Shown: positions 1,450-34,542, counted from the stretch's first letter. The stretch: 64,000 nucleotides of DNA from a virus (IMGVR_UViG_2654588115_000001:16268-80267), one strand, 5' to 3'. The notes: a model not told the origin generated them from the sequence alone. Program-made: numbers and translations.

Positions 1450-1945
1450 AAAAAATATCTTGACTGCACAAGCCCCAAGAGATAAACTTCTTGATTTCCA
1501 GGAAACGGCAAGGCAGACTAATCCCGCGAAGGAAAAAAGTTAGCCTGTAAAACGAGAAACTTCCGTCATTCCGAGGTTTCCGTATAAGTGATGCTACTCT
1601 GACCGAAGTCAGCATGATATATCAGCCAACGACCTTCCCCGGCTGTCCGGCGTTTCCACCGCAATACCATGAACCCTGCTCACTGCCACTATCGCAGCCA
1701 ACAAAAGGCTTACCCTCCGCACCCTACTTTTCACCATGGGAAAATCCTTTAGGCATAACGAGGTCCTGAAGTGCGTTCCAACCCCTGTGGTAATTCCTCG
1801 GTAGCATCATACAGACCAAGGAAGCCCCGCATATTCTCTGCATCGGCTATGCGACACCGGCATTTTTATACTGCTGGCAGCAGATAGCGAATCCACCAGA
1901 GAAATAGTGTGTTCCAGTGAACCGCCCTTTGACTCTCGTCAACAG
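1450..1945 (-). ncRNA. Long structured ncRNA A (about 500 nt)
   Basis: No ORF; consensus promoter upstream; GNRA/UUCG hairpins (TTGAC-GAGA-GTCAA, CGGTG-GAAA-CGCCG, CTGAC-TTCG-GTCAG); ends in a TCTTG...CAAGA hairpin plus T-tract; shares ordered motifs with 33680-34240. Confidence 0.75.
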
Positions 1946-1950
1946 TTCAC

Positions 1951-1980
1951 ATTATACATAAGTAAAATCACAACTGTCAA
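1951..1980 (-). promoter_or_regulatory. Sigma70 promoter of ncRNA A
   Basis: TTGACA-N18-TATAAT; operator-like TTATTTTACA at 1991-2000 and a part-site in the spacer. Confidence 0.8.
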
Positions 1981-2077
1981 GTGTCTTTTTTTATTTTACA
2001 CTATAAATAAACTATGATTATCATTGCACTGCTATGTTATAACTCTGTTCTTACCATTATTCAATCAATAACAATTC

Positions 2078-2145
2078 GGTAAGGAGTAACTACGAGCATA
2101 GCGAGTAGTTAAGGAGCGAAGCGACTTGATTCAGAGTTACTTACC
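2078..2145 (+). other. ssi/primosome-assembly-like hairpin
   Basis: GGTAAG...CTTACC outer stem, TAACTAC...GTAGTTA inner stem, GAGCATAGCGA and GAGCGAAGCGA motifs of the kind seen at plasmid single-strand initiation sites. Confidence 0.45.
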
Positions 2146-2164
2146 ATTGTTATACCAATGTTAT

Positions 2165-2225
2165 ACTCTTTCCCCCTACCCCCATATATAATAGAAAAAC
2201 AGGGGGTCTTGGCAACCCTATTTTT
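2165..2225 (-). promoter_or_regulatory. Putative late promoter (phage sigma-like factor)
   Basis: GGGTTGCCAAGACCCCCTGTTTTTCTAT; near-identical motif at 58070-58100 upstream of the tail-tip genes. Confidence 0.55.
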
Positions 2226-2361
2226 CAAAAAAACTTCCAAAATCATAAAAATATTTTTAAGCCGCTAAAAGATGAATATTAACCTACTCATATTCATCTT
2301 GAAAATGACAGTTCCCCGGAAGTTCTTCCCTCACCAGCGAATTACATGGCAACTACCATTC

Positions 2362-2450
2362 ACACCTGTATAACTGTATAACGTCATAACATTGTAATGG
2401 TGTAATTGTATAACTGTGTAAATGTACAGTATTATACCATCACAATGGCA
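2362..2450. repeat. 8-bp repeat array 2 (parS-like)
   Basis: TGTATAAC/TGTAATGG/TGTAATTG units, mostly in reverse orientation. Confidence 0.7.
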
Positions 2451-2646
2451 TTGAATCCTCCTTTTGCCACCTCACAGACGGAAAAATAACCCATTTCCAC
2501 GCAGACCGCTCTCACGTCCTCTGTATGCCATTTTAGCATCCGGTGCAGGTAAACTATCGTAAATCCATCTACAGGCCCCTAGAATCGACCGTGAGAGAGC
2601 AAAAAAATCCCTCTCGCGAGCAATGTAAAATAAAAGCGTCACTCTG

Positions 2647-2808
2647 TCAATTCGTAGATGTGCTTTTATTCTTTTGGGGTGCATCTGAAGAAACACCTTT
2701 ATTGGGGAGTTGAGGATGTATTTTCTCTAAGCGCGCCTCTAGCTCTTCTGGTGTTAGTTCTTCGATTTCCTTCAGAATTCTCTCAAGAAATTCCATCTGG
2801 TCGCTCAT
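2647..2808 (-). CDS. Hypothetical 53-aa protein (not in ORF track)
   Basis: MSDQMEFLERILKEIEELTPEELEARLEKIH...; GAGGTG RBS. Confidence 0.55.
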   Translation of the reverse strand: MSDQMEFLERILKEIEELTPEELEARLEKIHPQLPNKGVSSDAPQKNKSTSTN

Positions 2809-2814
2809 TAGCAA

Positions 2815-2979
2815 TCACCTCTCTGGAAGCAATGGAGTTTTCCAATTTTCCTTTATTGCATTGAGCAATGTTTCGGGGTTTGCCTCCGGATTTTGTTGCA
2901 TCATATAATGCAAGCACTCCTCTGGTGTTTTGGCATCGATTGCTTTGAATGCCAGCTCTAACCATTCCATTTGTGTCAT
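2815..2979 (-). CDS. Hypothetical 54-aa protein (not in ORF track)
   Basis: MTQMEWLELAFKAIDAKTPEECLHYMMQQNPEANPETLL...; AAAGGAG RBS; tandem with the next ORF. Confidence 0.55.
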   Translation of the reverse strand: MTQMEWLELAFKAIDAKTPEECLHYMMQQNPEANPETLLNAIKENWKTPLLPER

Positions 2980-3529
2980 TGCCCATCAGCTCCTTTTATC
3001 ACATTATCCAGTAAGCTATCAGAATTGTCAATATATAACCTGCCTACCAGCATTTATCTATGAATAACTATGTATGCCGACACAGAAGTCCCATTTTGTA
3101 TGATACCTGTTTCATCCGGTCCGAATCCTGTTATCCATTGGTATAACTATGTGTCACGCCATCTTCCAAGCCCCAAAATCTTCTGTATCACCTTGGTAAA
3201 GTCATTGCATCCCCTATGAATCAAGGCATGATGGCCGCTCATTGATGCAGAAATCCCTCAAAACCTGTATCACTGCGGTAAAAAGTGCCGTAATCCCTAG
3301 TAAATAAAGGCTTCCAGCTGGTTTTCATTGGTTATTCTATGTATCACAATACGTATCACCCCCCATAATCCCAGTAAATACGCGGTCTGACGACTAAAAA
3401 CTTTGAAAATGACGGCGAAACGCACGGACGGTCACGCCCCGCCCCGGACCAGGAAAGGTTTCCCCCATTGGTGGGATTTTTCGCACCCCTCCCCCTATAC
3501 TCACACAAAGAAGGGGGATTTTTCCCCAT

Positions 3530-3890
3530 TGTTACCACCAACAACGCCACCGCCACCGCTTCGACAAAGTACACCCACCGCACACACCACCGCCACCACA
3601 CCGCCACCAACACCGCACCCCCCTATTTTACGGCGAAAAAAAGTATATGAAATATGTATTTAATATGTTTTTGTCAGATGAAGAGGAAAACACCGACAAA
3701 AACAACCACCGCACCACCGCCACCACATCGAAGGAGAGGGCAGAACAGGGGGATATATAAAGATGTTACCATGTAAGAAAATCCCTGCCGTTTTACCGTT
3801 GGTATAGTATCAAACCGCTGCAACCTTCCCCCAATGGCTACACCAACGCAATAACACCACTATACAAAGTTATAACACCGCCACCGCTGA
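3530..3890 (+). repeat. Strand-polarised CCACCGC/CACCGCCAC repeat cluster
   Basis: Many CACCGC/CACCAC copies on one strand at about 3535-3620, 3705-3725 and 3877-3888. Confidence 0.7.
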
Positions 3891-4036
3891 AAATATCCAA
3901 TAAAATATTTTTTTCTTTTCCCCCTATTAATGAAGAGAAAAGACAATATTATACAATGCTGCAACCTTGTAAGCCTTGAAGTATAAGGGTATTTATGCTT
4001 TTTATATTTTATTTTACAAAAAGTTAAAGATAACGC

Positions 4037-4065
4037 TTGACGTTCATGTTAAAGGACGATATACT
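4037..4065 (+). promoter_or_regulatory. Early sigma70 promoter
   Basis: TTGACG-N17-TATACT; operator-like TTATTTTACA at 4009-4018. Confidence 0.7.
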
Positions 4066-4218
4066 TTTAATTGTCAAAGGGAAAACAACAAAACGTATTC
4101 CGCTTGTGTACTTATCGCCGTAACCATCGCAGGGGAGGGATTAAAGGCAAGTGATACAAAGTAGGGTTTTACCAATGACAACGCCAAATTAATAGTTTTA
4201 TGAAAAGAGGTTTTAACC

Positions 4219-4779
4219 ATGAAGAAAACTTATGTATCTGTAAACAATCGCCGTTTTTTTCGTATTGAAGTAAAAGACAAAGAAAAGGAATTAGCTACAA
4301 AGTTATATGCCGAATTACAGGATGTATTTCCTTGTGCCGTATACAAAGAGAATCCTGCCGATAACATGCCGAATATAATTGTAGAATTAAACGAATTTCA
4401 TTTTACTACTGTAAAGGATTTTAAGGCAGAATTTAACAAAGTTTATAACATGGTTAAAAAGGACGGTTCCACCCTAAATAAAGACGAAAAAAACGTCCCC
4501 AAAATGGAAAATACACCTACATGCTACACCGCCAAAAATACGGCTAAAAAAGTAAGAAGACGTAACCACCAGATTGTAAAAGCAAGGAATTTATACAATC
4601 ACATGGTTAATACCATGATGGAGGAGAACTTTGATAAATATGATAATTCCCCCCTTAATTTTCATCTTGTAAACCATGCACCAGCATTTTATTACAAGTC
4701 GTTTGCACAGTACAGGGAAGCAAAAAAGATTTATAACTTTTCTAAGTATCATACAAGGTTTTTTCCTGCCGTTGCATAA
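4219..4779 (+). CDS. Hypothetical early protein
   Basis: 186-aa ORF, GAGG RBS, first gene of the rightward operon. Confidence 0.75.
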   Translation: MKKTYVSVNNRRFFRIEVKDKEKELATKLYAELQDVFPCAVYKENPADNMPNIIVELNEFHFTTVKDFKAEFNKVYNMVKKDGSTLNKDEKNVPKMENTPTCYTAKNTAKKVRRRNHQIVKARNLYNHMVNTMMEENFDKYDNSPLNFHLVNHAPAFYYKSFAQYREAKKIYNFSKYHTRFFPAVA

Positions 4780-4826
4780 ATGTAAAATAAGAACGTCATT
4801 TTTATAATATTATTGGAGGTATAGCA

Positions 4827-5042
4827 ATGTATATAAAAAAAGAATACTCATTTACTGACCTGCTTAATAATTCCTGGTCTGGTGCTACGCAAGTATTAGA
4901 AAAAATCGAAGAAGACGGCAGAGAAAATGAAGCCATGGGAATCATAGAAGAAACATTTTACGGCGAAGTTCCCACCGATACACAGGTTAATGATTTTATA
5001 TGGTTTGACCTTGCGGACATTATGGGATTATACGAAGAATAA
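4827..5042 (+). CDS. Small acidic early protein
   Basis: 71 aa, GGAGG RBS, D/E-rich. Confidence 0.8.
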   Translation: MYIKKEYSFTDLLNNSWSGATQVLEKIEEDGRENEAMGIIEETFYGEVPTDTQVNDFIWFDLADIMGLYEE

Positions 5043-5061
5043 CACTATGGAGGGATAGACA

Positions 5062-5301: not shown

Positions 5302-5303
5302 AA

Positions 5304-5492: not shown

Positions 5493-5505
5493 TGGAGGGA
5501 TTAAA

Positions 5506-5905: not shown

Positions 5906-5907
5906 CA

Positions 5908-13837: not shown

Positions 13838-14474
13838 ATGCTCTAACCATTTCTAAAGTTACTTTATCATATAGAGATTTTAGTTCATTAATTGCTTTTC
13901 TTACAACTTCGATATTATCTACTTTATCACATTCAATAGTCTTATATATTTGTGTTCTGTAAATTTTATTTTCACTAATAATATTTTTTAATTCATCTTT
14001 ATCTCTAAGTGGGACAACCTTAGTGCTTCTTCTTTTTGAGATACCATATTGGAAACCGCTTGGTAAATCCATCGTAAGAGTTATATCGTTGTACTTATTA
14101 ATCATTTTATAAGTAGTTTGTTTTTCATTTATTTCCAAAGCAACTCTATACTCTGCTTTTTCATTATTAGGTTCTGCAAACAAAGAAATACTAACTGCCC
14201 CACCAACATAATTGATATTCTGCAATTCTGCCCATAAATATGTTCTAATTCTTCTTCGTGTTCCATCGAGCACATTATTATGTTGGACAAAAACAAAATC
14301 TGTATTTGCACATATGTTTTCAACTTCTTTATTAAAAACTTCAATCATATGCAGAGAATTTTTATATAAATCTTCCATATATTTTTTTTCATTTGCATCG
14401 ATTATCTTTTTAGGAGATTTATACGCTTTGCCACAGCAGGACATAATATAGTTAGCCAATTCACTATTATTCAT
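13836..14474 (-). CDS. R-M island accessory protein, unknown function
   Basis: About 212 aa, low GC, overlaps the MTase stop. Confidence 0.75.
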   Translation of the reverse strand: MNNSELANYIMSCCGKAYKSPKKIIDANEKKYMEDLYKNSLHMIEVFNKEVENICANTDFVFVQHNNVLDGTRRRIRTYLWAELQNINYVGGAVSISLFAEPNNEKAEYRVALEINEKQTTYKMINKYNDITLTMDLPSGFQYGISKRRSTKVVPLRDKDELKNIISENKIYRTQIYKTIECDKVDNIEVVRKAINELKSLYDKVTLEMVRA

Positions 14475-15453
14475 GCTCGCAACCTTCTTCATTTAGATAT
14501 TTTGTCACTTGATTAGCTATATGCCAAAACATAACAGGAGGAATTGCATTCCCTAATGCCCTATACTGACTTGAATCACTACCACAGAGCTTGAAGTCCT
14601 CCGGGAAAGACTGTATTCTTGCTACCTCTCTAGGAGTAAATCTTCTATACTTGTCATTTTCAAACAATACAGGGTCAGTACTGTTCAAGGATACTTTTGC
14701 TAAATGAGCACCAACTGTATTGCATGGGCCATTAATATCCTGGGCTCTTCCTTTATTCATTGAATCACGATTTTTCATCATTCCATCAACTGCTCTTTGC
14801 GAAAAGTAATATTTGTCCGGCACATCTTCTTCGAGAACTTTTCTTAATGGAACATAATCACTGCTATCATTAATTAAAGACTCTGGAAACTCAAAGTCAA
14901 CATTCAAGTCTTTTCTAAAGCCTACAATTATAACCCTTTCTCTTTTCTGTGGAACCCCATACTCAACAGCCTTAACAATATCATACTTAACTGTATAACC
15001 AGAATCCTCGAATTCTTTTATAATCAAAGGAAACGCCTCATGTTTATTGGCAGTTAATATCCCTTTAACATTTTCCGCAATAAAGCATTTAGGTTTTTTT
15101 TCACGTAATATTCTACACATCTCGAAGAAAAGCATTCCCTTATCGTCTTTAATACCCAGTCTTTTTGGATTCTGGGCTACTATTGAAAAACTTTGACACG
15201 GGAAACCACCAGTTAAAATATCAATTTCTGGTATTTCGGATGATTTAACTGTTCTAATATCTCTATTATCCGGTTTTAATCCAAAATTTTCTTCAAAAAT
15301 ATTGCAAGCCGATTCTTCAATATCATTAGCATATACAATTTCCATACCATTGTCATTATAGTGATTTCCTAAAAAGTTAAAATCACCTAACAACCCAACA
15401 TCAGTTCCTCCACACCCACAAAACAAAGATGCAACTTTTAATTTCCGTTCCAC
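14467..15453 (-). CDS. DNA (cytosine-5) methyltransferase M2
   Basis: FCGCGG, GGFPCQSFS, ENV, QKRERV, R.FTPREVARIQSF, YRALGNA. Confidence 0.97.
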   Translation of the reverse strand: MERKLKVASLFCGCGGTDVGLLGDFNFLGNHYNDNGMEIVYANDIEESACNIFEENFGLKPDNRDIRTVKSSEIPEIDILTGGFPCQSFSIVAQNPKRLGIKDDKGMLFFEMCRILREKKPKCFIAENVKGILTANKHEAFPLIIKEFEDSGYTVKYDIVKAVEYGVPQKRERVIIVGFRKDLNVDFEFPESLINDSSDYVPLRKVLEEDVPDKYYFSQRAVDGMMKNRDSMNKGRAQDINGPCNTVGAHLAKVSLNSTDPVLFENDKYRRFTPREVARIQSFPEDFKLCGSDSSQYRALGNAIPPVMFWHIANQVTKYLNEEGCEHE

Positions 15454-16868
15454 GCTAATAACTCCTCATATTGTCCAGCTTTTTCCTTAAATGTTATTTC
15501 CATTCCATCTCTAGGCGCTATTGAAATTAAATCATCCTTAAATAATTTGACAGGGTCATTTAATATAAATAATTTTATATTCGACTTGCTTATCATCAAT
15601 CTGTAAACAAAATACCTATTTGTATAGCTTGTTGCAGCTTGCCATTCATTAGGCGTAAGATGAATTTTATTAAAAACAATAGGCCTATTACTAATAGTAG
15701 TCTTTACTTCTATATTCCTTATAGTTTCGTCAAGTTCTCTTGAGCTAATATCATATCCAACAGCTAATTCTGTCGGCATCTTTTTCACCAAATGTATAAG
15801 GTCTTCTCTACCACCAATTCGTAGTCTCTCACACTCGTGCCCTTCAACTAACGTTTCGCCAATATCGCCAATATCTTTGGTGTTTAAGTTGTCAAATTTA
15901 TTAATTTTTTCAAGATAAACCGCAAATTGTTTCATTCTTTCATTACGATTATCTTTTTCACTATCCAACGCATCGCAAATATAATTTGTTATATCTGTGC
16001 TAAAGTCTGTGTCGGTTAGTTCTCTGTTAACATATCTAAACCAGTTCGATTTACAATTATTAATCTCATCTAGTGAAGCCGTTCCTCTTTCAATGTACTC
16101 ATCATACTCATCGAACCATTCATTTGAATTAACGAACCTAAGTATTGTTTCATTTTCTCTATGGTTCAAGTAGAAATGTTTTCCATTATACGACGTTAAT
16201 AAATTTGCTAATTCCATATAATCAAGTATATCTCCTGCATACCTAATTATATCTCCTTCTTGAACATACTCCCTTTCCAATTCTCTATTTTTTTGAATAC
16301 GATGCCACGCATTTATAGGAGGTTCATTATCCCTAGTACATCTCAAATCGTTAAATATGCAATAACAAGCCTCTGCTTTTGTAATATAGCATTTTTTTCC
16401 TGTTTCTTTTTCTGCATCACTTAATACTCTTAGAAAATATGCTACAGGCTTAAATCTTATTTTATTTTCGATAAGTTCTTTTATATATTTAGCTTTTACA
16501 TGCGCCCCAGGATATTGAAATGTAAAACAAAATCTCTTAAAGAATCTTACCAAATCATTTGATTCAGCCAACTCATTTGCACTTAGACAAGCATGATTTT
16601 TTCTATATTCATCTTCATAGAACAATCCAAACAGTGATGAGATTTCCGTTCTCCAATTATTCATTGTCTTCACTGTCACTGTCGCATTTCCAGGAAAGCA
16701 TCTTATTGATTTTAACAGCTCTTCATTAAATTCATCTTTGTCTCTACTACCAATTCTATTAATCTCAGAAGCCATATAAATCAATACTGCTTCTACATTA
16801 GACTTAAAGCGTGGTCTGCAATGATGTATTCTAAAGTTGTATTCTTCCGGAGTATGATATATAGACAC
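15438..16868 (-). CDS. Probable type II restriction endonuclease (C-terminal DUF3883/PD-(D/E)XK)
   Basis: IGE...GYDISS...IEVKTT...LTPNEW; lies between two MTases. Confidence 0.85.
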   Translation of the reverse strand: MSIYHTPEEYNFRIHHCRPRFKSNVEAVLIYMASEINRIGSRDKDEFNEELLKSIRCFPGNATVTVKTMNNWRTEISSLFGLFYEDEYRKNHACLSANELAESNDLVRFFKRFCFTFQYPGAHVKAKYIKELIENKIRFKPVAYFLRVLSDAEKETGKKCYITKAEACYCIFNDLRCTRDNEPPINAWHRIQKNRELEREYVQEGDIIRYAGDILDYMELANLLTSYNGKHFYLNHRENETILRFVNSNEWFDEYDEYIERGTASLDEINNCKSNWFRYVNRELTDTDFSTDITNYICDALDSEKDNRNERMKQFAVYLEKINKFDNLNTKDIGDIGETLVEGHECERLRIGGREDLIHLVKKMPTELAVGYDISSRELDETIRNIEVKTTISNRPIVFNKIHLTPNEWQAATSYTNRYFVYRLMISKSNIKLFILNDPVKLFKDDLISIAPRDGMEITFKEKAGQYEELLAWNGN

Positions 16869-16870
16869 AA

Positions 16871-17962
16871 TTATCTCTCCTCTTTAGCTTCAAGGACTTT
16901 TCTTACTTGCTTTGCTATTTCCTGTGCCATAAGTGGTGGCACAGCATTTCCCACTTGTCTAAATTGCTGTGTTTTATTACCTAAAAACCGAAAATCATCT
17001 GGGAATGATTGTAATCTTGCACATTCTCTTACAGTCGGAACTCTATTATATTTGTAATGGAAATGATGTCTATGTCCTGTATCTATTGTTGGAGCAGGCT
17101 TATTATCTGGAAATCTCGTCCATGCAACATGGAAATTTCTTGTATTTCTATATTCTTCTGGTAAATCCTTGTAATTTCCTCCGGCAGGAACTAAAGATAT
17201 AATCTTTCTAACTCTTTCCGTATGGTTAGCAGCTATATGGTTTTTTACACTGTCCGAATTTTTTCTCATTAATTTTTGATAATCATTTTGCGGTTGAACT
17301 GCATAATCCTGGATTTCTTCTCCTAATGTATCTTCTAATGGAGGCAAATCTGACAAAGCCATTTCGCAGGTGACTATTTCAGATTTAGGCGTAGGATAAT
17401 GAAATTCTATATTTGCATCCTTCGTCCCCACAAAAATAACTCTTCTTCTATTTTGTGGAACTCCATAATCAGCAGAACATAATATTTCGCATTTAACATC
17501 ATAACCCATTTTCCCAAATTCTGTTAAAATGCTTTCTTTAATTTTTCCCTTAAACAAACCGACAAGACCAGGTACATTCTCAATGACAAATGCTTTTGGT
17601 TGGATTTCCTTAACCAGTCTAATATATGACAAATATAGTTTATTTCGTGGGTCATCAAACTTTCTAGGGCCAGATAGCGACATGCCCTGACATGGCGGCC
17701 CACCAACTATTATATCAATAGTTTTATCTCCGATAAGAGGTTTTATATCCTTCTCATAAGTAATTGTTGTTATATCACCACAAATAGACTTTGCCCCTTT
17801 ATGGTTTAATTCAAATGTTTCTAATGCTTTCTGGTCACTGTCTATTCCTACTAAAATATCAAAATTATCCTGTTGAAAGCCATAAGAAAGGCCGCCAGCA
17901 CCACAAAATAAGTCTATTGCATTATATTTTTTCACCTTATTTATCACCTTTTCAAAATACAT
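16871..17962 (-). CDS. DNA (cytosine-5) methyltransferase M1
   Basis: FCGAGG, GGPPCQGMS, ENV, QNRRRV, TVRECARLQSF, QVGNAV. Confidence 0.97.
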   Translation of the reverse strand: MYFEKVINKVKKYNAIDLFCGAGGLSYGFQQDNFDILVGIDSDQKALETFELNHKGAKSICGDITTITYEKDIKPLIGDKTIDIIVGGPPCQGMSLSGPRKFDDPRNKLYLSYIRLVKEIQPKAFVIENVPGLVGLFKGKIKESILTEFGKMGYDVKCEILCSADYGVPQNRRRVIFVGTKDANIEFHYPTPKSEIVTCEMALSDLPPLEDTLGEEIQDYAVQPQNDYQKLMRKNSDSVKNHIAANHTERVRKIISLVPAGGNYKDLPEEYRNTRNFHVAWTRFPDNKPAPTIDTGHRHHFHYKYNRVPTVRECARLQSFPDDFRFLGNKTQQFRQVGNAVPPLMAQEIAKQVRKVLEAKEER

Positions 17963-18627: not shown

Positions 18628-18677
18628 CATTACGCCATTATACCATTACACATGTATAACATTATACATGTGTAATG
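18628..18677. repeat. 8-bp repeat array 3 (parS-like)
   Basis: TTACGCCA TTATACCA TTACACAT... Confidence 0.75.
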
Positions 18678-20278: not shown

Positions 20279-20345
20279 CACCATTACACCATTACACCAT
20301 TATACATGTATACCATTATGACATTATACAATTATACATGTATAT
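20279..20345. repeat. 8-bp repeat array 4 (parS-like)
   Basis: CACCATTACACCATTACACCATTATACATGTATACCATTATGACATTATACAATTATAC. Confidence 0.8.
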
Positions 20346-25604: not shown

Positions 25605-25967
25605 TTAACATTCATAGCCAACAAAAAGTCCCTGCTCCTTCATCGCCCCGAATATTGCCACCAGTACCGGCACACAAATGGAGTTGCCGGCCTGTTTATA
25701 GAGCTGGGTATCTGAAAGCCCATTGGCCGACAACATATCGGCATCCTCCTTGGCAAAACCTTGGAGCGCAAAACATTCTCTAGGGGTAAGTTTTCTAATT
25801 CTACCGTCTACCATTATTCCCTCCGCACAACTGCAACTTAATGTGTGAGCACATCCCTCTATGATTCTCCCACGGCGTTTCCCATGCGGAAAATCGAGGG
25901 CTAGTCCGTCATACTCTTTGCCCACTGCATAACCTCGCTTCGTATTGTTCCTTGCGTAGTAAATCAA
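25605..25967 (-). CDS. Split m5C MTase part 4: TRD plus motifs IX-X
   Basis: TKRGY...RRGR...AHTLSC, then RKLTPRECFALQGF and QLYKQAGNSI. Confidence 0.9.
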   Translation of the reverse strand: MIYYARNNTKRGYAVGKEYDGLALDFPHGKRRGRIIEGCAHTLSCSCAEGIMVDGRIRKLTPRECFALQGFAKEDADMLSANGLSDTQLYKQAGNSICVPVLVAIFGAMKEQGLFVGYEC

Positions 25968-26272
25968 CTATCCACCAACACTTTCGGTATGTTGTTCCCT
26001 CCGGACCCCGTAGGGAGCGTAGGCGCAACACCATTCGTGCCATAGACACGTCTTAGATAATCATGGCCACTAATAGTGGTCACTGTACCCTCACGAACAA
26101 TACCATCATTAATCCCCTGCGGACTGGCGAAGGAAACAAAGCCCTTCAACTTTTCATCCGAGAGGAAATACCGTTCCGCAACATCGCGGTCACAAACATC
26201 CTGCAAATGAATTTCCAGCGGAACCGGCTGCGGAAACTTAAATCCCAGTAGCGGTATATCCACCCTATTCAT
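25964..26272 (-). CDS. Split m5C MTase part 3: stand-alone TRD module
   Basis: FKFPQPVPL...LQDVCD.DV.ERYFLS...RVYGTNGVAPTLPT.SGGN..PKVL; ATG with GAGGG RBS. Confidence 0.8.
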   Translation of the reverse strand: MNRVDIPLLGFKFPQPVPLEIHLQDVCDRDVAERYFLSDEKLKGFVSFASPQGINDGIVREGTVTTISGHDYLRRVYGTNGVAPTLPTGSGGNNIPKVLVDS

Positions 26273-26285
26273 TGCCCTCTGGACT

Positions 26286-26597
26286 TTATTCACCCAGGAA
26301 CACCATCCTTGGGGCCTTGTATTCGGTAGCTGCAAGACAGGGTACAATAGATTTCAAATGACATACTTCGTAGTGCTGATGAACCTTACCATCATTCAGC
26401 GCAAGGCCAAAGACAAAATTCTTATTTGTCATTGGAGTAATGCGGCCATACCACATATCTGCCATGTAATATTTTCCAGGGACATCATCATCTAAAATAT
26501 CCCCCAATGTCTTTACTCCGGGCTTTCCTTGCGGAAATTCAAAGGAAAGCGAGGGAATCATCCGCACATTTTCCTGTGCGCGTTCAAGACTGGTCAA
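26286..26597 (-). CDS. Split m5C MTase part 2: stand-alone TRD module
   Basis: FEFPQGK....TLGDILDDDVPGKYYM...PCL.ATEYKAPRMV. Confidence 0.8.
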   Translation of the reverse strand: MTSLERAQENVRMIPSLSFEFPQGKPGVKTLGDILDDDVPGKYYMADMWYGRITPMTNKNFVFGLALNDGKVHQHYEVCHLKSIVPCLAATEYKAPRMVFLGE

Positions 26598-27118
26598 TCG
26601 GCAAGCCTCGACACACAGAAGATGCGCTCTCTGCTCTGCGGCACACCGTAGTCCTTGGCATTAAGGGTATCAAAGGAAGATTCATAGCCCATCTTGGCCA
26701 GCTCTTCCAGATATTCCTTGAACACAGGCAGATGCTTTTCCGAGAGCACATTCGGAACATTTTCCCACAAAACGAATTTAGGCTTCTTCGCCCTCACAAT
26801 TTCCACCGTGTTCCAGAGTAAGGAAGAACGAGTCCCCGAACCTTTTACACCACCTTCTCCACGGCCGGCCACAGAAAATGACTGACAGGGAGAACCATGG
26901 AATACCATATCAAAATCTGGAAGCTCCTCCGGCACAATCTTTGTAATATCCCCGAGATTCATACTCTCCGGCACATTATGCAACAGGGAATAACTGCGGC
27001 TGGCAAACTTATCAATCTCACAGTAAGCCACCAGTTCAAAGGGAATCCCTGCTTTCTTCAAGGCCATTTCCGGGGCTCCAATACCAGAAAACAAACTCAA
27101 TAATCGTAATTTCTTCAA
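26594..27118 (-). CDS. Split m5C MTase part 1: catalytic motifs I-VIII
   Basis: FSGIGA, EID, GDIT, HGSPCQSFS, RSSL, WENV, PQSRERIF; stops just after motif VIII. Confidence 0.93.
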   Translation of the reverse strand: MKKLRLLSLFSGIGAPEMALKKAGIPFELVAYCEIDKFASRSYSLLHNVPESMNLGDITKIVPEELPDFDMVFHGSPCQSFSVAGRGEGGVKGSGTRSSLLWNTVEIVRAKKPKFVLWENVPNVLSEKHLPVFKEYLEELAKMGYESSFDTLNAKDYGVPQSRERIFCVSRLAD

Positions 27119-27990
27119 GACTTACCTCCGTAATTCTCCTGCCAATAAGGGCAGAACTCATGTACATCACACCAGTCACGGCATTTTCTGTCCGGATAGG
27201 ACTTGGAATTATCCCAGCGGTCACGCTTGTTGCAGACCGGAGGAATCTCGCCGCTTTCCAATGCTTTCATCAACGCATCATATTTGGCCTTCATATAGGT
27301 ACGAACCCATTTCAGCGAAATAAAGTGAATCGGAACGATGTACCCTGCCTGGGTAATCCCGTACTTCTTCGCCGTGGCATCCACACCACCTCGGACAAAC
27401 ATATTGACATTGATTGCTTTGACATGAATCCCATGCTTCTCCATGAGATAGCGGTAGTAATTAAGCTGAATGGCAATCTCGCGCACATCACGGATGCCAC
27501 CAGGCTCAAATACCTGCTCCCACTTTTCCTTGCCCTTGTCCTTGCCACGGGTAACGATTCTGCTGCGCCACTTCGGCTTAAAGCCTAGAGCCTTTGAAAT
27601 ACGAAAAGCCCCAAAGAACTTCCAATCCCACAGAATCTGATTTTTGCAGTCATAGGCATCAAACTGTCCGGAGGTTATATCGTCCTCCAGGCGAACTTCC
27701 GCCAACCAACCATTCGGCTGATTATCCTCGAAAGCCTTGTGGCTGTTCGTGCCAATCATCGCCGCAATCCCCCCCATAGGGTCGATAGCATAATCATGGA
27801 CGATTTCAAGGTAAGTCTGTCTGGTCGGCTTGATGAGCTGCGTAACGCTCGGCTTACCAAACCAATGCCTTGTACTGTCCACCGCCGCCGTCAACGCCGG
27901 CAAACTCATACAACGCTGGTCGCAATGCTTTAAGCACTGCTCAAAAGGAATCTTCTCCCCGGCATTACACCGGAAGAACTTTGCTGGCAC
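27115..27990 (-). CDS. Cas4-like PD-(D/E)XK exonuclease
   Basis: SVTQL, GT..H, E.RL, GQFDAY...WDWKF, QLN.Y; C-terminal C..WC.....C Fe-S-like cluster. Confidence 0.85.
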   Translation of the reverse strand: MPAKFFRCNAGEKIPFEQCLKHCDQRCMSLPALTAAVDSTRHWFGKPSVTQLIKPTRQTYLEIVHDYAIDPMGGIAAMIGTNSHKAFEDNQPNGWLAEVRLEDDITSGQFDAYDCKNQILWDWKFFGAFRISKALGFKPKWRSRIVTRGKDKGKEKWEQVFEPGGIRDVREIAIQLNYYRYLMEKHGIHVKAINVNMFVRGGVDATAKKYGITQAGYIVPIHFISLKWVRTYMKAKYDALMKALESGEIPPVCNKRDRWDNSKSYPDRKCRDWCDVHEFCPYWQENYGGKS

Positions 27991-28032
27991 TAAGCCTCTA
28001 ACCCCTTATAAATCAACGCGTTTCCTCCTTTA

Positions 28033-28100
28033 GTACATGTATACCATTACGCCATTACACAGTTATACCATTATAACGGCGTAACGCTATACCATTGTTA
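28033..28100. repeat. 8-bp repeat array 5 (parS-like)
   Basis: TATACCATTACGCCATTACACAGTTATACCATTATAAC... Confidence 0.8.
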
Positions 28101-28123
28101 TGTACTTCCTTAATACATTTATT

Positions 28124-28173
28124 ATTATAAATATGTAAAATGATAAAGTCAAGAGTGTATTTCTTATTTTACA
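28124..28173 (-). promoter_or_regulatory. Sigma70 promoter with operator sites
   Basis: TTGACT-N17-TATAAT; TTCTTATTTTACA at 28161-28173 and ATTTTACA in the spacer. Confidence 0.75.
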
Positions 28174-30163
28174 TTCCTTCCGTAACTTTTTCGCTTAACC
28201 GTGAAGTTGCCGGATTATAGACCAGGGTAAATAACTCGTCCTCACTGCGCCGCTCTCTGGCCTTTACCAACTTAATCATTGAGTCGTACTTATACTTTTC
28301 CTTGTCGAGGGGCGAAAGAGTAGAATCCAAAGCCCTGCGCCACAGCAGGAACACATAGTCACCAGAGTCACCAATGGCACCGGAACCACGCAAATCCTTC
28401 TGCTCTGGCTCATGCCATTTACCGCCCTGCTCCTTGCCCTGACCTGCCTTGGATAACTGCGACAGAACCACGAACAGAACATTGAGCTTCTTGGCAAAGT
28501 CCTTGGTCCGCTCTGCCATCAATTCTTCGGCAGCAATGGTATCACGCCCACGCATCTTTTGGAAATAATCTACCGCCACAATATCAACGCCCTGCACACG
28601 GGTATTCATCAGATTGACATATTCCTCCATGCCATCCAATGTCAGACCAGGCTTATCTACAATATACAGGCACTGCTCCAGCTTATCCTTGATAAGCCCA
28701 TAGGTGTCCGGATGCTGCCGAATATACTCCGGCACTTCATACCGTCGCGTCTGCACAATTTTCGCCACAAGGATTTTCATTATATCCTCCTTCGGCATTT
28801 CCAACGAGAAGAACAGAACCGTTTTTCGTAGCTTCACCGTCCAATACAGAATCCACTCCAGAAGATTTTCCGTCTTACCAGAGTTGGATGCAGCACCGAG
28901 GATAACCACATTCTTGCGCTTGAATTTTGCCGCCTTGTCGATATTCGGAAAGCCCACGCCGAAATATTCTTCGTCGCGCAATGACTCCAACGCCCGGAAT
29001 GAATCCGTAGCACTGGCAATATCTTTCAGCTTTTCTTCCGTGGTATCATCTTTAAGATTCAGCAGGGCCTTGACCACATCAATTCCCTTCCCCCAGGTCC
29101 TCGCCAAAAGCTCAGCTATATCCTGCAATACCACTGGATTCCCCACTGTTCTCACATAGTCCAGAATGTTCCGCTCCTGCACCTCCCTGTCCTCTTCCTC
29201 GGCTATCATTTCCATAACCACATAGAGGTCTATCGGCAGATAAATACAATCCGCAGCAATATCTTTCCCACCAATAAGCATATCATTAAAGTCTTTGTAC
29301 CCATCCGGGATTACTGCCACTTTAACCACGGTTTTCGGCGCATGGTTTTTGAACAAATCCCTTGCCCGGCGCACGAACTTCGATGCCTTGCCATCATTAT
29401 CCGGGCAGAGCACCACCTTGCTGTTCTCCACCGTTTTCAACATCCCCTTGATGCGTTCCACATGGCTTTTGGTTATGCTGATGCCACAGTAAGCCACGCA
29501 GCAATTCCCCTGCTGCACCGCAGACATACAATCAAAAGCTCCTTCGGCAAGCATAAGTGTCCGCGTTTCCTTCAAATTCTTTTGCGCCTGGGGCAAACCA
29601 AAGAGAAATTCTCCCTTGGTAAACAGCCCTTTCACGTTCTTACTATTTTTGTACTTCGGCTTTCCCTCAAAGAATCGATACAGAAACGCCACCGGTCGAT
29701 GCCATTCATCAAACATAGGGATTGTCAGTGCCTTTAACTTATCGGAATACCCCAGCTGATAGGCTTCGATGGTTTCATCAGTAAGCCCACGCTTATGCAG
29801 ATAATCCACCACAGTCGGCAATTCTTTACGCATCCGTCCAATCCACTCGTCATTTCGTTGGACAATCGAGCTGTGCTCCCGGTACTCGTCCGTATCGCTG
29901 ATGGTCAGGCCAAAATCATCACACAGGGTATGAATGGCGGTTTCAAAACTGCAACCGTCACGCCCCATAACATAGCGGATTATATCGCCACTGCTATGGC
30001 AGCCAAAGCAATAATACCGATTATCCGGGTAAACCACGAAAGCCGTATCATTATGCCCACCGTGGATTGGGCAGGCGCAGCGATAAGTTCCGTCGCTCTG
30101 CAATTTCAGTTCGGGGATATACTCTACCAGTGATTTCCCCCGGATAACATCCACAATATTCAA
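28169..30163 (-). CDS. Primase-helicase (CHC2 zinc finger + TOPRIM + DnaB-like SF4)
   Basis: CPIH...CFGC; KYKNS, EGAFD, PDND; AASNSGKT, FSLEM, VDYFQ, SQL, LRGSG. Confidence 0.95.
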   Translation of the reverse strand: MNIVDVIRGKSLVEYIPELKLQSDGTYRCACPIHGGHNDTAFVVYPDNRYYCFGCHSSGDIIRYVMGRDGCSFETAIHTLCDDFGLTISDTDEYREHSSIVQRNDEWIGRMRKELPTVVDYLHKRGLTDETIEAYQLGYSDKLKALTIPMFDEWHRPVAFLYRFFEGKPKYKNSKNVKGLFTKGEFLFGLPQAQKNLKETRTLMLAEGAFDCMSAVQQGNCCVAYCGISITKSHVERIKGMLKTVENSKVVLCPDNDGKASKFVRRARDLFKNHAPKTVVKVAVIPDGYKDFNDMLIGGKDIAADCIYLPIDLYVVMEMIAEEEDREVQERNILDYVRTVGNPVVLQDIAELLARTWGKGIDVVKALLNLKDDTTEEKLKDIASATDSFRALESLRDEEYFGVGFPNIDKAAKFKRKNVVILGAASNSGKTENLLEWILYWTVKLRKTVLFFSLEMPKEDIMKILVAKIVQTRRYEVPEYIRQHPDTYGLIKDKLEQCLYIVDKPGLTLDGMEEYVNLMNTRVQGVDIVAVDYFQKMRGRDTIAAEELMAERTKDFAKKLNVLFVVLSQLSKAGQGKEQGGKWHEPEQKDLRGSGAIGDSGDYVFLLWRRALDSTLSPLDKEKYKYDSMIKLVKARERRSEDELFTLVYNPATSRLSEKVTEGM

Positions 30164-30180
30164 AAGGCATCCCTCCTACG

Positions 30181-30206: not shown

Positions 30207-30212
30207 TTCACC

Positions 30213-30395: not shown

Positions 30396-30398
30396 TCA

Positions 30399-30671: not shown

Positions 30672-30673
30672 CG

Positions 30674-30985: not shown

Positions 30986-31148
30986 TACCGAAATCAACCA
31001 TCCCTTCCAACTGTTTCGCCAGGTTATCCAGCCTTCCACCAAGGATTCTCATAGCTTTACAGGTATGACTGCCCTCATGTAATGCCGCCATCCCACAAGC
31101 CAGTTCAGAAAGCCCTTCGATTTCGTACAAAATGTCTTCTAATGCCAT
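30966..31148 (-). CDS. Small helical protein
   Basis: MALEDILYEIEGL...; GGAGGAG RBS. Confidence 0.65.
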   Translation of the reverse strand: MALEDILYEIEGLSELACGMAALHEGSHTCKAMRILGGRLDNLAKQLEGMVDFGNGKVME

Positions 31149-31229
31149 AGATTGATATTCTCCTCCGTTATATGCAGGGAAAACCCGTGCGAGGAGCCAT
31201 CCCCGCACGAGCCAAACCAGTGATATTGC

Positions 31230-31832
31230 TTAAATAGGAACCTCCTCATCAGCAATACCGAAATCATCTGCCGGTTTATTCTCAGCCAGTTCAATACCGA
31301 ACTCCGAGAAATCAGCGGCTCCACCCCGGTACTCAATCAACTTATCCACCGCCAGCTTTACGATATACAGATTGATACCGTTAGCACGGGCAGAAGCGTA
31401 GTAAGCACTGGGCTGGTAAAGCACACGCACCATCGAGCCATCACCAATGGCAACATCTTTGTCGAGCTGGATGCGGCGCACCGTGTCAACTACAGGAACG
31501 AACCGTTGTTTTTCCTCACCGGTCTGCTTATCGCGATAGAAAGCACCAGTCTGGAAGAAGAAGTACAGCTCTCCGTTCTCCTGCTCTTTGTAACCGCAGG
31601 TAGCATCGGCAGACCATTTTTTCCCCTGGAACTTCTCGTTTTCCTTCGCAGCCGCAAGATAATCGTCACAGATTTTCTTCATCTTGGTTTCGGTTTCCTT
31701 ATCAAAGGAAAGAGCCAGCTTGTACTTGCGTTTACCCTCAAACTCGTCAAACCGGGTATTCACCTTTACCCAGTGGGCCTTGCCGGAGAAGGAAACAACG
31801 GGTTTCTCTGTTAAGTTGACATTAAGATTCAT
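31230..31832 (-). CDS. ssb: Single-stranded DNA-binding protein (T7 gp2.5-like)
   Basis: G.A.W.KV, KYK..L, IG.GS.VRV, G+.L pattern; acidic tail DDFGIADEEVPI. Confidence 0.85.
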   Translation of the reverse strand: MNLNVNLTEKPVVSFSGKAHWVKVNTRFDEFEGKRKYKLALSFDKETETKMKKICDDYLAAAKENEKFQGKKWSADATCGYKEQENGELYFFFQTGAFYRDKQTGEEKQRFVPVVDTVRRIQLDKDVAIGDGSMVRVLYQPSAYYASARANGINLYIVKLAVDKLIEYRGGAADFSEFGIELAENKPADDFGIADEEVPI

Positions 31833-31868
31833 TAATTAGCAACACTCCTTTGAATTTACAAAGTATGT

Positions 31869-32085
31869 TTCTTATTTTACATAAAAAGCATACTAATTGA
31901 CACTTGGTGTAAAATAAAAGAGGTGTTCCGTGTAAATATATGTACATTTACTTGACATGATTTAACAAGAACGCTATAATTACACGAGAAGCAGTTCTTA
32001 TTTAACACCCGATGATGATTATTATAACAGTCCCCGGGTGAGAAGTCAACACTATTTCTATAAAAATGATGTTTTTATTTTACAC
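31869..32085. promoter_or_regulatory. Lysis/lysogeny switch: face-to-face promoters and operators
   Basis: (+) TTGACA-N17-TATAAT at 31952-31980 toward the repressor; (-) TTGACT-N17-TATAAT at 32049-32021 toward ssb; operator copies at 31869, 31908, about 31995 and about 32074. Confidence 0.8.
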
Positions 32086-32119
32086 TGTGTTGCTTTGACT
32101 AGACGAAAGGAAGATAACA

Positions 32120-32527
32120 ATGGAGAACAAACCGTATAAGAACAAGTGCCGCAACCGCATCAGAGAGTTGCGCATTGCACGCGGTCATAATTCTTTGCGG
32201 GGGTTCGCGGAGTTCATCAATACCCATCTAGGCTACGAAGTATCAGCCAGTGCTCTTTCCCAACTGGAACTCCATAGACGTGAGAACCCCTACTGGGAGC
32301 TTGTCGATGTATTATCCACTTACTTCGGCGTAACCGCAGATTACCTCATGGGCAAAACAGACTATAATGTGAGGAAAGAAGAAGTTATCAAAGACCGGGA
32401 AGACAAAGTAACCAAATCCCCGGAAGAAGAACTTCTGATGCAGCAGTTCTACGATAAGATGCGTGAAATGTATGCAGAAAAGGAAAAGGCAAAAGAAGAA
32501 CGCCGCGCCTTAAAAGAAGATAATTGA
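32120..32527 (+). CDS. XRE-family HTH repressor
   Basis: RIRELRIARG..SLRGFAE...VSASALSQLE...ENP...L..YFGVTADYLMG; divergent from the replication operon. Confidence 0.9.
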   Translation: MENKPYKNKCRNRIRELRIARGHNSLRGFAEFINTHLGYEVSASALSQLELHRRENPYWELVDVLSTYFGVTADYLMGKTDYNVRKEEVIKDREDKVTKSPEEELLMQQFYDKMREMYAEKEKAKEERRALKEDN

Positions 32528-32540
32528 TTTTTTACATCAT

Positions 32541-32583
32541 AAAACCCGAAGGAAGACACACCGTATTCCTTCGGGTATTTTTT
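32541..32583. terminator. Bidirectional terminator
   Basis: ACCCGAAGGAA...TTCCTTCGGGT-ATTTTTT. Confidence 0.8.
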
Positions 32584-32651
32584 CGCTTATTTCTATATTG
32601 GTATAATTTCGTTATTATTGGCTTTATGTCAGTGTTTCTTAGAAACACCAA

Positions 32652-32819
32652 TCACACATCTTTGTGTTCCGTAATCATGCACACGCAAGCTGAAACCTTG
32701 TTCGCAATCACCCTAATTCCAGGGTGGACTGCCATCAAATCTTCATCCTTGCAAAACGACCGTAGCAAATCTTCAACTTCGTAAAGTTCATCCAATAAGG
32801 CATGATTATTATCGTCCAT
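32652..32819 (-). CDS. 55-aa protein with own promoter and structured leader (not in ORF track)
   Basis: MDDNNHALLDELYEVEDLLRSFCK...; AAGGAGG RBS; TTGACA-N17-TATTAT at 32941-32913. Confidence 0.65.
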   Translation of the reverse strand: MDDNNHALLDELYEVEDLLRSFCKDEDLMAVHPGIRVIANKVSACVCMITEHKDV

Positions 32820-33049
32820 ATGTACCTCCTTATGGTAGAGAAAAAATTCGGCGTTGGCATTTATCCGGATTCAACCAACCCGTCAAAGGACAATGTCTTT
32901 AACGTGAGTACTATAATAAGCCAAAACACGATAATTGTCAACCGCAAAATTTGTAAATGTCAAAAAATCAATCAAAAATTAGCAGCCATCCGTATTGTGA
33001 AATTGGCAGAAGAATATAACCTCAATTTTTATCCGCGAAAAGCAAACTC

Positions 33050-33660
33050 TTAACAGGCTCATCTACTATAAAATCATTCATAAAAATATAAGTTTAAGAA
33101 CTAAATAGGATGCAATCAAAATTCCCTTAACCCCTGTTTTTACTATGAAGATTGAAACCAGTCAAGGGAATTTAATTAAATGTAAAAGAAAATTTTCCAT
33201 ACGACATATTTCCGAAAAATCCTGCCTTAAAAATCCAAAAAAAACAAGAAGTAATATTCCGACAAAACGTGAAACATGTGAAACAAAAACATAGCGAAAG
33301 AAGCAAGTAAACCAAGAAAAATCACAATAAAAAACAATAGATAAGTCGCGACAAATTTGCGATAAAACCGATAATCTGAAACATATGTACACATACAATA
33401 TACTAAGTAATGAAAATGAAAATGCCCCTTGGAACACACTAGCATCCCAAGAGGCGTTCTTACTCATAAAATTAAAAGTCAAAAAGAAATTCTATACACC
33501 AGGCAATACCTTCAAAAACACTACTTACTACGCCCAATACTTCCCCGTCCCTTGCAAACATCCTTAACTCATCAAGTGAAGAATGTTCTAACCAACTAAG
33601 AAGAAATTTAATTTTTATCTAGTAGAGATATAAATATCTTGAAAAATTCTTATTGACTTG
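33050..33660. other. AT-rich, A-skewed non-coding region downstream of ncRNA B
   Basis: About 600 bp, very A-rich on the + strand, no credible ORF. Confidence 0.5.
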
Positions 33661-34347
33661 TAGGTGTTTTTATGATGGAGACCACAGGAAACGGAGGAGC
33701 GGAACAGAGTGCAACCTTAGTTTCTGCAAATACAGTATACTACTGTCGCACCATGTCGAAAATTGATGGATTCCACGAGGTATCCGGTATCGCTTTTCAC
33801 AGTTCAATTAGTCACCGTCGCTACAACGATGCAGAGTTTTAATAGTGGTCTTATACCCCACACTACCACGCCCCTCGGCGCGTTCCTCTGGCTCGGCATA
33901 TTTCATCCGTATACATGACAGGGCAGGTATCGCGCTCTCACGCGAATTTAGGGAACCTGGCACCTGTGATTAAGCCCCCGCAGGCTTCTTAACGCTCCGC
34001 AGACAACAAAAAAAGACGCATACTTGCGCCTTACCCTTTGTATATATACCGGTATCTTAGCCTTCCACGGCCCCAGCATACCGTCTGCCTACGCTTATTA
34101 TGGGAGTTAGCCTGTTCTTCACCCACTTAGGTCACAGAAGGACATTGAACAAATTCCTTCTGACCCCGCCGATATTCTGTGCATCCGCTGGCGAAACGGT
34201 GGTCTCTCTACGAGTAGCCAGGATTATACTGCTTGCGTGCAGTGACATAGTAACCTTACCTACATTTTCCCGCAATAAGGACACGGGCAACCTACGGCAG
34301 CTTCTTCCTGCCGTTGAGGAACGCAGAAACACCGCGAAAACACTTGA

Positions 34348-34375
34348 CAAAAACCCAGTAAATCCTTATACTAGG
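34348..34375 (-). terminator. Attenuator-like terminator in the ncRNA B leader
   Basis: CCTAGTA-TAAGGATT-TACTGGG-TTTTT. Confidence 0.5.
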
Positions 34376-34378
34376 CTT

Positions 34379-34449
34379 ATAACTTGAACTCAATGTTGTG
34401 TGTTTACGCAACTCGGGACTTGGATGTTGGCGCATTCAAGTCCTTTTTT
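34379..34449 (+). ncRNA. Antisense (countertranscript) RNA, about 70 nt
   Basis: TTGACA-N17-TATACT (34344-34372); two stem-loops, the last GGACTTGGATG-TTGGCG-CATTCAAGTCC-TTTTTT; complementary to the ncRNA B leader. Confidence 0.8.
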
Positions 34450-34501
34450 CTTATGTTCATTTTCGATTGTCTTACCTATCTATCGGCTATCCCCAGTCCA
34501 C

Positions 34502-34542
34502 TGTGGATAACTCATGCTCAAATAATATCATACTTATCCACA
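34502..34542. promoter_or_regulatory. Two perfect DnaA boxes
   Basis: TGTGGATAA at 34502-34510 and TTATCCACA at 34534-34542, overlapping the ncRNA B promoter. Confidence 0.9.

Follow-up and report, generated by a model that had tools for sequence, protein, structure and literature searches.

How might a phage genome with partition genes and no recognizable initiator gene start its replication as a plasmid? The question is raised by IMGVR_UViG_2654588115_000001, an 80,267-base IMG/VR virus record rated 100% complete by CheckV, of which bases 16268-80267 were analyzed as one stretch of 64,000 nucleotides (the window, to which coordinates refer unless another record is named). A preliminary description of this DNA had noted two minus-strand units without open reading frames (ORFs), RNA A and RNA B, and had read them as one RNA family serving two origins, B in the plasmid state and A in lytic growth. 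Both units were confirmed: each has its own promoter, no conserved ORF is found in B or A, and the indels that distinguish relatives are hairpin-sized, with lengths not divisible by three. The record represents a phage of a rumen bacterium that can persist as a plasmid. Covariance and profile comparisons indicate that A and B are homologous, two members of one RNA family that is uncatalogued and widespread on plasmids and phage-plasmids. RNA B is probably an RNA-based, initiator-free origin of the plasmid state.

The closest named relative of the window is pSRC3 (NC_017073.1), a circular plasmid of 73,380 bp from Selenomonas ruminantium subsp. lactilytica TAM6421. Since it carries terminase, portal and tail genes together with parA, pSRC3 is a phage-plasmid. 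A second close relative is an IMG/VR record of 79,134 bases (G002, 98% complete), with a ParA 92% and a TerS-like protein 81% identical to those of the window. The window parA (34741-35502, +) encodes a product that likewise shares 92% identity with the protein annotated as ParA in pSRC3. Six B-type sequences were compared: those of the window, pSRC3 and G002, and those of three metagenome contigs found via their ParA proteins (88, 67, and 64% identical). RNA A is represented by two sequences, that of the window and its pSRC3 counterpart (A′), which share 81% identity. Three covariance models were built, all with rough E-values: R1, a 166-position core from the six B-type sequences only, with A excluded; R2, for the 3′ domain of B; and R3, trained with A included.

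RNA B (33643-34516, -; about 870 nt, of which about 180 nt form a regulatory leader) lies head-to-head with parA. Its promoter, TTGACT-17-TATTAT (34522-34550, -), is found at the same place in all six B-type sequences. Just past the predicted transcription start is a DnaA box, TTATCCACA (34502-34510, -), which is perfect in six of six. A second, inverted box, TGTGGATAA (34534-34542, -), sits inside the promoter spacer; it is perfect in four sequences, carries one mismatch in a fifth and is absent in L135. The conserved core domain covered by R1 (34086-34250, -) consists, in order, of hairpin H1 followed by UAUA(U)AA, hairpin H2, H3 with a GAUGCA.AGAAUAU loop, GGGG with a long H4, and H5. The 3′ module (33652-33787, -) comprises CCGGAUACCU (33787-33778), CCGUUUCCU (33694-33686), and AGUCAAU (33658-33652), and is followed by A/T-rich DNA.

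The fold of B is well marked by covariation. RNAalifold placed 185 pairs on the six-sequence alignment, with 95.5% of 1092 cells paired. Compensatory changes were seen in 55 of these pairs, against 24.6 ± 3.4 in shuffled alignments (0 of 500 reached 55) and 9-20 when partners were slid by 1-3 columns, a comparison that somewhat favors the structure because it was derived from the same alignment. Seven covarying pairs fall in H4 and two in H1. Many pairs alternate G-U with G-C or A-U, so that folding of the minus-strand transcript, not of duplex DNA, fits. B is not a gene leader; its counterpart in pSRC3 runs into a convergent gene.

The leader of B carries the elements of a copy-control system. 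A predicted countertranscript unit (34344-34450, +) consists of a promoter, TTGACA-17-TATACT (34344-34372), an RNA of about 75 nt, a 13-bp terminator hairpin (34415-34444), and a U-run. The antisense promoter (TTGAC[A/G]-17/18-TAnAnT) is present in all six close B-type sequences, 170-210 nt downstream, and is followed in each by about 75 nt ending in a strong hairpin and a U-run (hairpin and U-run were judged by eye). The countertranscript (34373-34450, +) has a predicted fold of two hairpins and is the complement of the B leader, with a duplex energy of -154.6 kcal/mol as compared to -38.2 for shuffles. Just downstream, in the sense leader, a hairpin CCUAGUA..UACUGGG followed by U5 (34349-34376, -) was found from the sequence and its predicted fold, and it may function as an attenuator. 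The loop of the countertranscript terminator (34415-34444, +) reads UGUUGGCGCAUU in the window and in L137, but pSRC3 and G002 have GUACGCCAAUAC, almost its reverse complement; leader hairpins of L017 and G080 are also capped by GCGCCAAC. The loop seems to be selected for a role in pairing (kissing).

No Rep-type family was detected among 30 proteins compared with Pfam, the 10 unexplained ones being compared also with PHROGs. The earlier picture of B, head-to-head with parA and equipped with DnaA boxes and an antisense unit, with no rep gene nearby, holds. The element does encode a replisome, including a T7 gp4-like primase-helicase (28172-30163), a T7-type SSB (31233-31832), an exonuclease (27118-27990), and DnaE (38233-41361). 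The par linkage, the DnaA boxes, the self-contained T7-like replisome, the copy control, and the fact that no initiator was found together argue that B is probably an RNA-based origin. Since a countertranscript with an attenuator is a standard way of metering initiation, and no other product is made from this region, the limiting initiation factor could only be the RNA. A copy-controlled plasmid replication RNA, as B had been described, fits all in silico tests, with control elements in six of six sequences and linkage to par.

It is distinctly unlikely that the RNAs are only regulators, with the true origin being DnaA-box and A/T-rich DNA recognized by host DnaA or by an unrecognized phage protein, and with B only tuning that origin or the par operon. 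The perfect DnaA box at the start of B in all six sequences, the repeats between B and parA, and the many ORFs without known function would suit such an arrangement. However, a countertranscript with an attenuator normally gates a rate-limiting replication factor, and the only product here is RNA. A covarying structure of about 650 nt also exceeds what the regulator of a neighboring promoter would need. Furthermore, an ORF-free RNA region alone suffices for replication in mycobacteriophages (PMC7157519).

These mycobacteriophages offer one of the closest layouts. Most parABS mycobacteriophages have no repA; a non-coding RNA (ncRNA) is expressed from the DNA that immediately precedes parA and is read away from it. 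About 600 bp of the ncRNA region suffice for autonomous replication, also when stop codons are placed in overlapping ORFs, and lytic growth is normal when the region is deleted (PMC7157519). In Alma, LadyBird, RedRock and others the prophage is extrachromosomal, an ORF-free transcribed region directly precedes parA in opposite orientation, and repA is missing (PMC7157519). B has the same layout, its transcription being predicted here. The mycobacteriophage origins differ in their size (about 600 bp) and in their actinobacterial hosts, and the excerpted text describes no DnaA boxes, countertranscript or second copy for them (PMC7157519). With filters off, R3 gave no match at E ≤ 1 on Alma 25800-28600, the one phage searched. 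A similar likeness of layout exists with oripLS20 of Bacillus subtilis pLS20, a class E theta replicon of about 1.1 kb which has no typical rep gene, carries a consensus DnaA box with near-matches and adjoins partition genes (alp7A) (PMC8557374). It differs in that neither an RNA product nor a countertranscript is claimed in the excerpted report (PMC8557374). R1 and R3 found no match at E ≤ 1 on pLS20 (L043).

In ColE1 a long structured transcript, RNA II, replaces an initiator protein, and an antisense RNA (RNA I) directed against its 5′ part sets the copy number. An antisense RNA complementary to the 5′ part is predicted for B and not for A; RNA I and RNA II show no sequence or Rfam relation to either. 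Unlike the ColE1 transcript, B is larger, its control resembles attenuation of transcription more than interference with primer maturation, and it has DnaA boxes and par linkage, on an element that encodes a replisome of its own and does not rely on Pol I. A ColE1-like primer function of the RNA we only infer; priming of this kind, duplex opening through an R-loop and helicase recruitment are each candidates for the mode of action of B. Countertranscript-driven attenuation controls the rep genes of pIP501, pAMβ1, and pT181. B shares with the pIP501/pT181 type the antisense promoter in the leader, the countertranscript with a terminator hairpin, and the downstream sense hairpin with a U-run; unlike in those plasmids, what follows the leader of B is a folded RNA and no conserved rep ORF. 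The primary origin of T7 is transcription-primed, with a gp4/gp2.5/gp6-type replisome and its own RNA polymerase, and has no large folded RNA; its replisome resembles the set encoded by this element. For pCB102, which the preliminary description had likened to these RNAs in motif order, the mechanism of replication is stated to be unknown, and a putative RepH ORF exists (PMC4383383).

The second copy, RNA A (1450-1945, -), is a compact member of the family of about 480-500 nt with an approximate 3′ end. Its promoter, TTGACA-18-TATAAT (1951-1980, -), matches the consensus at 12 of 12 positions and reads TTGACA-17-TACAAT in pSRC3. The domain homologous to B (1746-1887, -) contains H1 with UAUAA, H3 with the GAUGCA.AGAAUAU loop, GGGG with H4, and H5; H2 is missing. 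The 3′ module (1459-1583, -) comprises ACGGAAACCU (1583-1574), CCGUUUCCU (1508-1500), and AGUCAAG (1465-1459). Comparison of A with A′ gave 119 predicted pairs, 23 of them compensatory (n = 2 sequences); shuffles gave 11.6 ± 2.3 compensatory pairs, and slid controls 0-2. The conserved RNA fold claimed earlier for both units is thus borne out by compensatory changes in excess of shuffles.

Homology of A and B is carried by the models. R1, run over the whole window with filters off, gave A (1746-1887, -) as the best non-self match (18.1 bits, E 3.3e-5), with B itself at 196.6 bits and the next non-self match after A at 9.6 bits. On pSRC3, R1 detected A′ with 29.5 bits (E 2.5e-9). The A domain scored 85 bits with R3, A being in the training set of that model. 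Conversely, a hidden Markov model (HMM) of A and A′ matched the same domain in the B-type RNA of L135 (E 1.4e-5), its sole match in 781,874 bases of metagenome loci; matches to the other B sequences were weaker. In the model-based alignment of the core domain, identity to the six B sequences is 53-62% for A and A′ and 49-55% for the B-type RNA of G080; A is therefore no further from the B set than the B-type RNA of another plasmid. Five blocks (GUAUA.A, GGGG, [A/C]CGG[A/G]WACCU, CCGUUUCCU, and GUCAA) keep one order throughout A, A′, the six B sequences and the distant B-type RNA of G013, and block spacing in the 3′ part is similar among all of these, with the motif limits of the 3′ module having been set partly with A in view. 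The R1 matches to A and A′, the HMM match to L135 and the block order support the proposal of one RNA family.

The motif chain on which that proposal had originally been built is a weaker guide. The exact-seed chain score of A vs B is 31, compared to 19.9 ± 3.0 for shuffles (0 of 500 reached 31), and natural control segments reached 31 in 1 of 142 and 2 of 318 cases. Across genomes the chain of A with pSRC3 B was equaled by 98 of 318 controls, and that of A′ with G002 B by 192 of 318. The cross-genome chains are no better than controls, so that the motif chain alone is marginal and cannot carry the homology claim. All six motif pairs of the preliminary description were found where it had placed them, but three, TCCCAT..GTAGG, AGGGTAAG..TTTTGTTG.CTGCG, and TATACGGA, do not occupy equivalent positions in the two RNAs. 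R1 aligns UCCCAU..GUAGG of B with GACCUCG..CCUAAAGG of A, not with TCCCAT..GTAGG of A. The AGGGTAAG hairpin is missing from B of pSRC3, and TTTTGTTG.CTGCG is a 3′ helix strand in B vs a 5′ hairpin strand in A. The A motif UAUACGGAAACCU (1583) corresponds to CCGGAUACCU of B at 33787, not to TATACGGA at 33913. A global MAFFT alignment of A and B did not line up the motifs, HMMs of the first three B and the two A sequences gave no cross-match at E ≤ 10, and the six-sequence B-HMM gave no match to A.

The family extends well beyond these relatives. Besides A and A′, 14 members were placed by model match or by B-profile. Flanks are readable in 12 of the 14, and all 12 adjoin parA; the other two are cut by short DNA. 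The parA-adjacent members are the six B sequences, G080, G013, and all four new IMG/VR loci with enough flank, in which the RNA is co-directional with parA, not divergent. A pattern of the 3′ block only identified 13 stretches on IMG/VR, 3 known and 10 new. In 6 of the 10 the 5′ core domain (R3, 44-67 bits) is present 240-430 nt upstream on the same strand; the remaining four (L227, L229, L233, and L234) gave no R3 match at E ≤ 0.1. The control set of DnaA boxes, countertranscript promoter and attenuator-like hairpin is shared by G013, and the antisense promoter recurs in four new IMG/VR members. A partial R1 match was seen in G085 (15.6 bits). One R3 match of 24.2 bits from the genome search (G180) lies over sufS/sufD coding sequence and was taken as false, so matches near 20 bits need additional supporting evidence. 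Motif-scan matches in L003 and L009 were rejected as chance matches in coding DNA.

Database searches agree with an uncatalogued family. Rfam gave nothing at gathering score in the window; at E ≤ 10 the matches of A and B were to unrelated small families at chance level, and at E ≤ 0.5 nothing was found over 560-4250, with one tRNA match only in the relatives. ROOL, GOLLD, GEBRO, and HEARO are, like A and B, large, ornate RNAs of mobile elements; ROOL and GOLLD are often found near tRNA genes, and the setting of A near tRNA-like genes resembles theirs. None of the Rfam covariance models for these four, OLE, group I/II introns or RNase P matched A or B. By blastn, A and B had no match in 50,697 phage records and matched only pSRC3 in PLSDB. 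In 262 Selenomonadaceae genomes, B was matched over its full length by the pSRC3 record only; the five other matches were fragments of 25-32 nt, of which the one inspected is coding sequence.

Other DNA may fill the place of B in more distant relatives. In L017, L018, and L019 (ParA 56-72% identical), ORF-poor DNA upstream of parA forms a positional analog of B, in which neither R1 nor R3 found a match. At L017 2990-3780 (-) and L019 1650-2700 (-) a different ORF-poor kilobase occupies this place behind a promoter with a DnaA box. Several unrelated RNAs may thus fill the role of B.

The B promoter is separated from parA by a cluster of GTATAAT / GTAATGG repeats (34590-34735), candidate centromere or regulator sites. 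Intergenic GTATAAT / TGTAATGG clusters were found at 737-771, 2367-2432, 18637-18662, 20281-20332, 34624-34700, 37401-37410, and 38164-38175, and in the part of the record (G000) upstream of the window; the places include both sides of A and the gap between B and parA. L017 and L132 have a repeat word of their own at matching places. Dispersed centromere sites are known in N15. The scattered clusters could be such sites or sites for a late regulator. Downstream of parA the module continues with an ORF of 134 aa (35502-35906, +; parA and ORF together 34741-35906), for which Pfam gave nothing above threshold.

What A does is a separate question. A is located in a gene-poor island of 3.6 kb ahead of a terS-like gene, between a late-promoter-like sequence and a conserved RNA with a tRNA-like element ahead of terS. 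It is not beside parA, being 32 kb away from B, and A′ is likewise 31 kb from B′ in pSRC3. The distance from the transcription start to H1 is about 75 nt in A vs about 285 nt in B; A has no H2 and a shorter middle part. No countertranscript unit was found in A, as had been reported; the statement that A has no antisense unit needs to be qualified by a weak promoter-like sequence, TTGACT-17-TAAACT (1460-1488, +), facing back across A (TTGACT-18-TACTTT in pSRC3, L001 9644, +). The conserved AGUCAA at the 3′ end of A is, on the opposite strand, the -35 of this site; at the 3′ end of B the same word has no -10 partner.

A putative repressor operator had been noted at the A promoter. The motif, TTTTATTTTACAC (1989-2001, +), lies just upstream of the -35 and is real: five copies of TTTTATTTTACA(C) occur in the window, at 1989 (+), 4007 (+), 32073 (+), 2624 (-), and 31908 (-). 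Two are inside a divergent immunity-type region (31860-32090) and one precedes the early operon. The motif beside the A promoter may be an operator; a plain A/T-rich upstream (UP-like) element fits too.

Several observations weigh against the proposal that RNA-based initiation has been recognized here and that both copies take part in it. Both RNAs are known from sequence alone. GC skew tracks gene direction and marks no origin, and many proteins have no known function, so that a novel initiator is possible. No DnaA box within one mismatch is present in A. R2 gave no match in A at E ≤ 10, which means that the two RNAs differ in the helices that separate their common 3′ blocks. In pSRC3, A′ runs directly into another RNA element with no A/T-rich stretch after it. 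A is absent from G002, where R1 with filters off found the B-type copy only in all 79 kb; L132 and L133, which were found via the TerS-like protein, also lack it at the corresponding place. A second RNA copy was detected in only two (G000 and pSRC3) of nine records searched whole (G000, pSRC3, G002, contig G080:C2, and five IMG/VR records). A is thus best regarded as an accessory insertion with its own promoter.

The idea of A as a derepressed lytic origin was supported by no test: A has no DnaA box and no countertranscript, and G002 does without it. In P1 the plasmid and lytic origins (oriR and oriL) are separate, the lytic one is driven by a repressor-controlled promoter, and both use proteins (RepA and RepL). 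The two-origin idea for A has an analogy in P1 and in the mycobacteriophages, whose plasmid origin is dispensable for lytic growth. A second, lytic origin is a possible function of A; since A is dispensable in G002 and without origin marks, this is only the leading option among several. In our view it is unlikely that a widespread class of plasmids and phage-plasmids uses a large folded RNA itself as replication initiator and that this element has two differently wired copies of it, one throttled by DnaA and the countertranscript to low copy number, the other unthrottled, under a phage-repressor-type promoter, and switching the same replisome to runaway lytic replication.

Alternatively, B could be the replicon RNA and A an accessory "moron" RNA, unrelated to replication, which reuses the fold in the packaging/late leader region (e.g., for protein sequestration, or in the role proposed for large phage RNAs among tRNA genes). 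The position of A behind the late-promoter-like sequence and ahead of terS would suit this, as would its dispensability in G002, where A is missing and the late-promoter-like sequence is followed at once by the next conserved RNA element, and the lack of every origin-type mark of B. We regard it as rather unlikely: A keeps the 3′ module of the family, the invariant CCGUUUCCU included, with family-like spacing, all other members with readable flanks adjoin par genes, and no large phage RNA in Rfam matches A.

It is very unlikely that A acts in trans, as an unregulated replicon RNA that titrates a factor, interferes with related replicons (incompatibility or exclusion) or shuts off the plasmid mode in lytic growth. 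The closeness of its core to the B sequences, which equals that of G080, the consensus promoter free of copy control, and the sporadic occurrence of the second copy, as with accessory competition genes, would be expected of such an RNA. However, the factor to be titrated is hypothetical, and A shows no pairing with the countertranscript (-45.5 kcal/mol vs -48.7 ± 4.5 for shuffles, 32 of 40 of which were as low or lower). With a duplex energy no better than that of shuffles, A as a sponge for the countertranscript was rejected.

The explanation that we favor, to which we give about an even chance, is that of one family of maintenance-module RNAs, in which B is the working replicon and A a compact paralog with an accessory role. 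The steps that follow, the transcripts themselves, their priming or opening activity and the role of A among them, we infer from sequence. The host-type promoter of B, gated by DnaA boxes, would transcribe the leader. The short countertranscript would pair with it, and the attenuator-like hairpin would stop most transcripts, a copy control of the pIP501/pT181 kind. Read-through would give a folded RNA of about 650 nt in place of a rep mRNA. This RNA would act in cis at the 3′ module (CCGUUUCCU ... AGUCAA, then A/T-rich DNA) and open or prime the DNA, after which the T7-like replisome of the element (primase-helicase, SSB, and exonuclease) and DnaE would take over without an initiator protein. 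A would have kept the core domain and the 3′ module, lost the leader, DnaA boxes and countertranscript, and be driven by a consensus promoter. Its most likely use would be as an additional start site outside copy control, or as a supply of the same RNA in trans once the promoter is on; it would be accessory, not required.

Other features of the island around A were also observed. A conserved promoter-like block (GGGTTG..., then TATTATAT.TG and GGGGTAGGGGG) heads this pre-packaging island in the window (2160-2215, -), pSRC3, G002, and L132; its coordinates outside the window include L001 10340-10420 and L131 3590-3680. Between A and the terS-like gene is a non-coding element (785-1052, -) that starts with GUAGCUACCGU and has several hairpins and a tRNA-like end. 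It is conserved in pSRC3, G002, and L132. No Rfam match to the element was found in the window; the end of the pSRC3 copy scores as an Rfam tRNA (36 bits), with no tRNA call by ARAGORN. Two small hydrophobic ORFs (52 and 43 codons; 1061-1364, -) lie between A and this next RNA element and are absent there in pSRC3. A gene-free stretch between the island and the early operon (3400-3900, +) is rich in CACCGCCACC-type repeats and G/C runs.

The element carries further cargo. A BpuJI-like restriction endonuclease and C-5 cytosine methylases, three full-length and one apparently split over two ORFs, are encoded at 13839-17962 (-) and 25608-27118 (-). A phosphoribosylanthranilate isomerase (TrpF-type) gene (36559-37155, -) adjoins the partition module, which is odd for a phage.

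Initiator-free origins of the pLS20 type and RNA-based origins of mycobacteriophages are known by genetics, and their mechanism is unsolved. In the family described here the RNA is large, strongly covarying and clearly divided into domains, and it has a textbook copy-control leader with no protein behind it. The second copy lacks the control leader and therefore makes a natural, built-in deletion series. With a cultured host strain (Selenomonas ruminantium TAM6421 carrying pSRC3) and this second copy, the role of the RNA at the origin is directly testable. The family would also give a missing marker by which plasmids and phage-plasmids without Rep could be recognized in metagenomes of gut and rumen.

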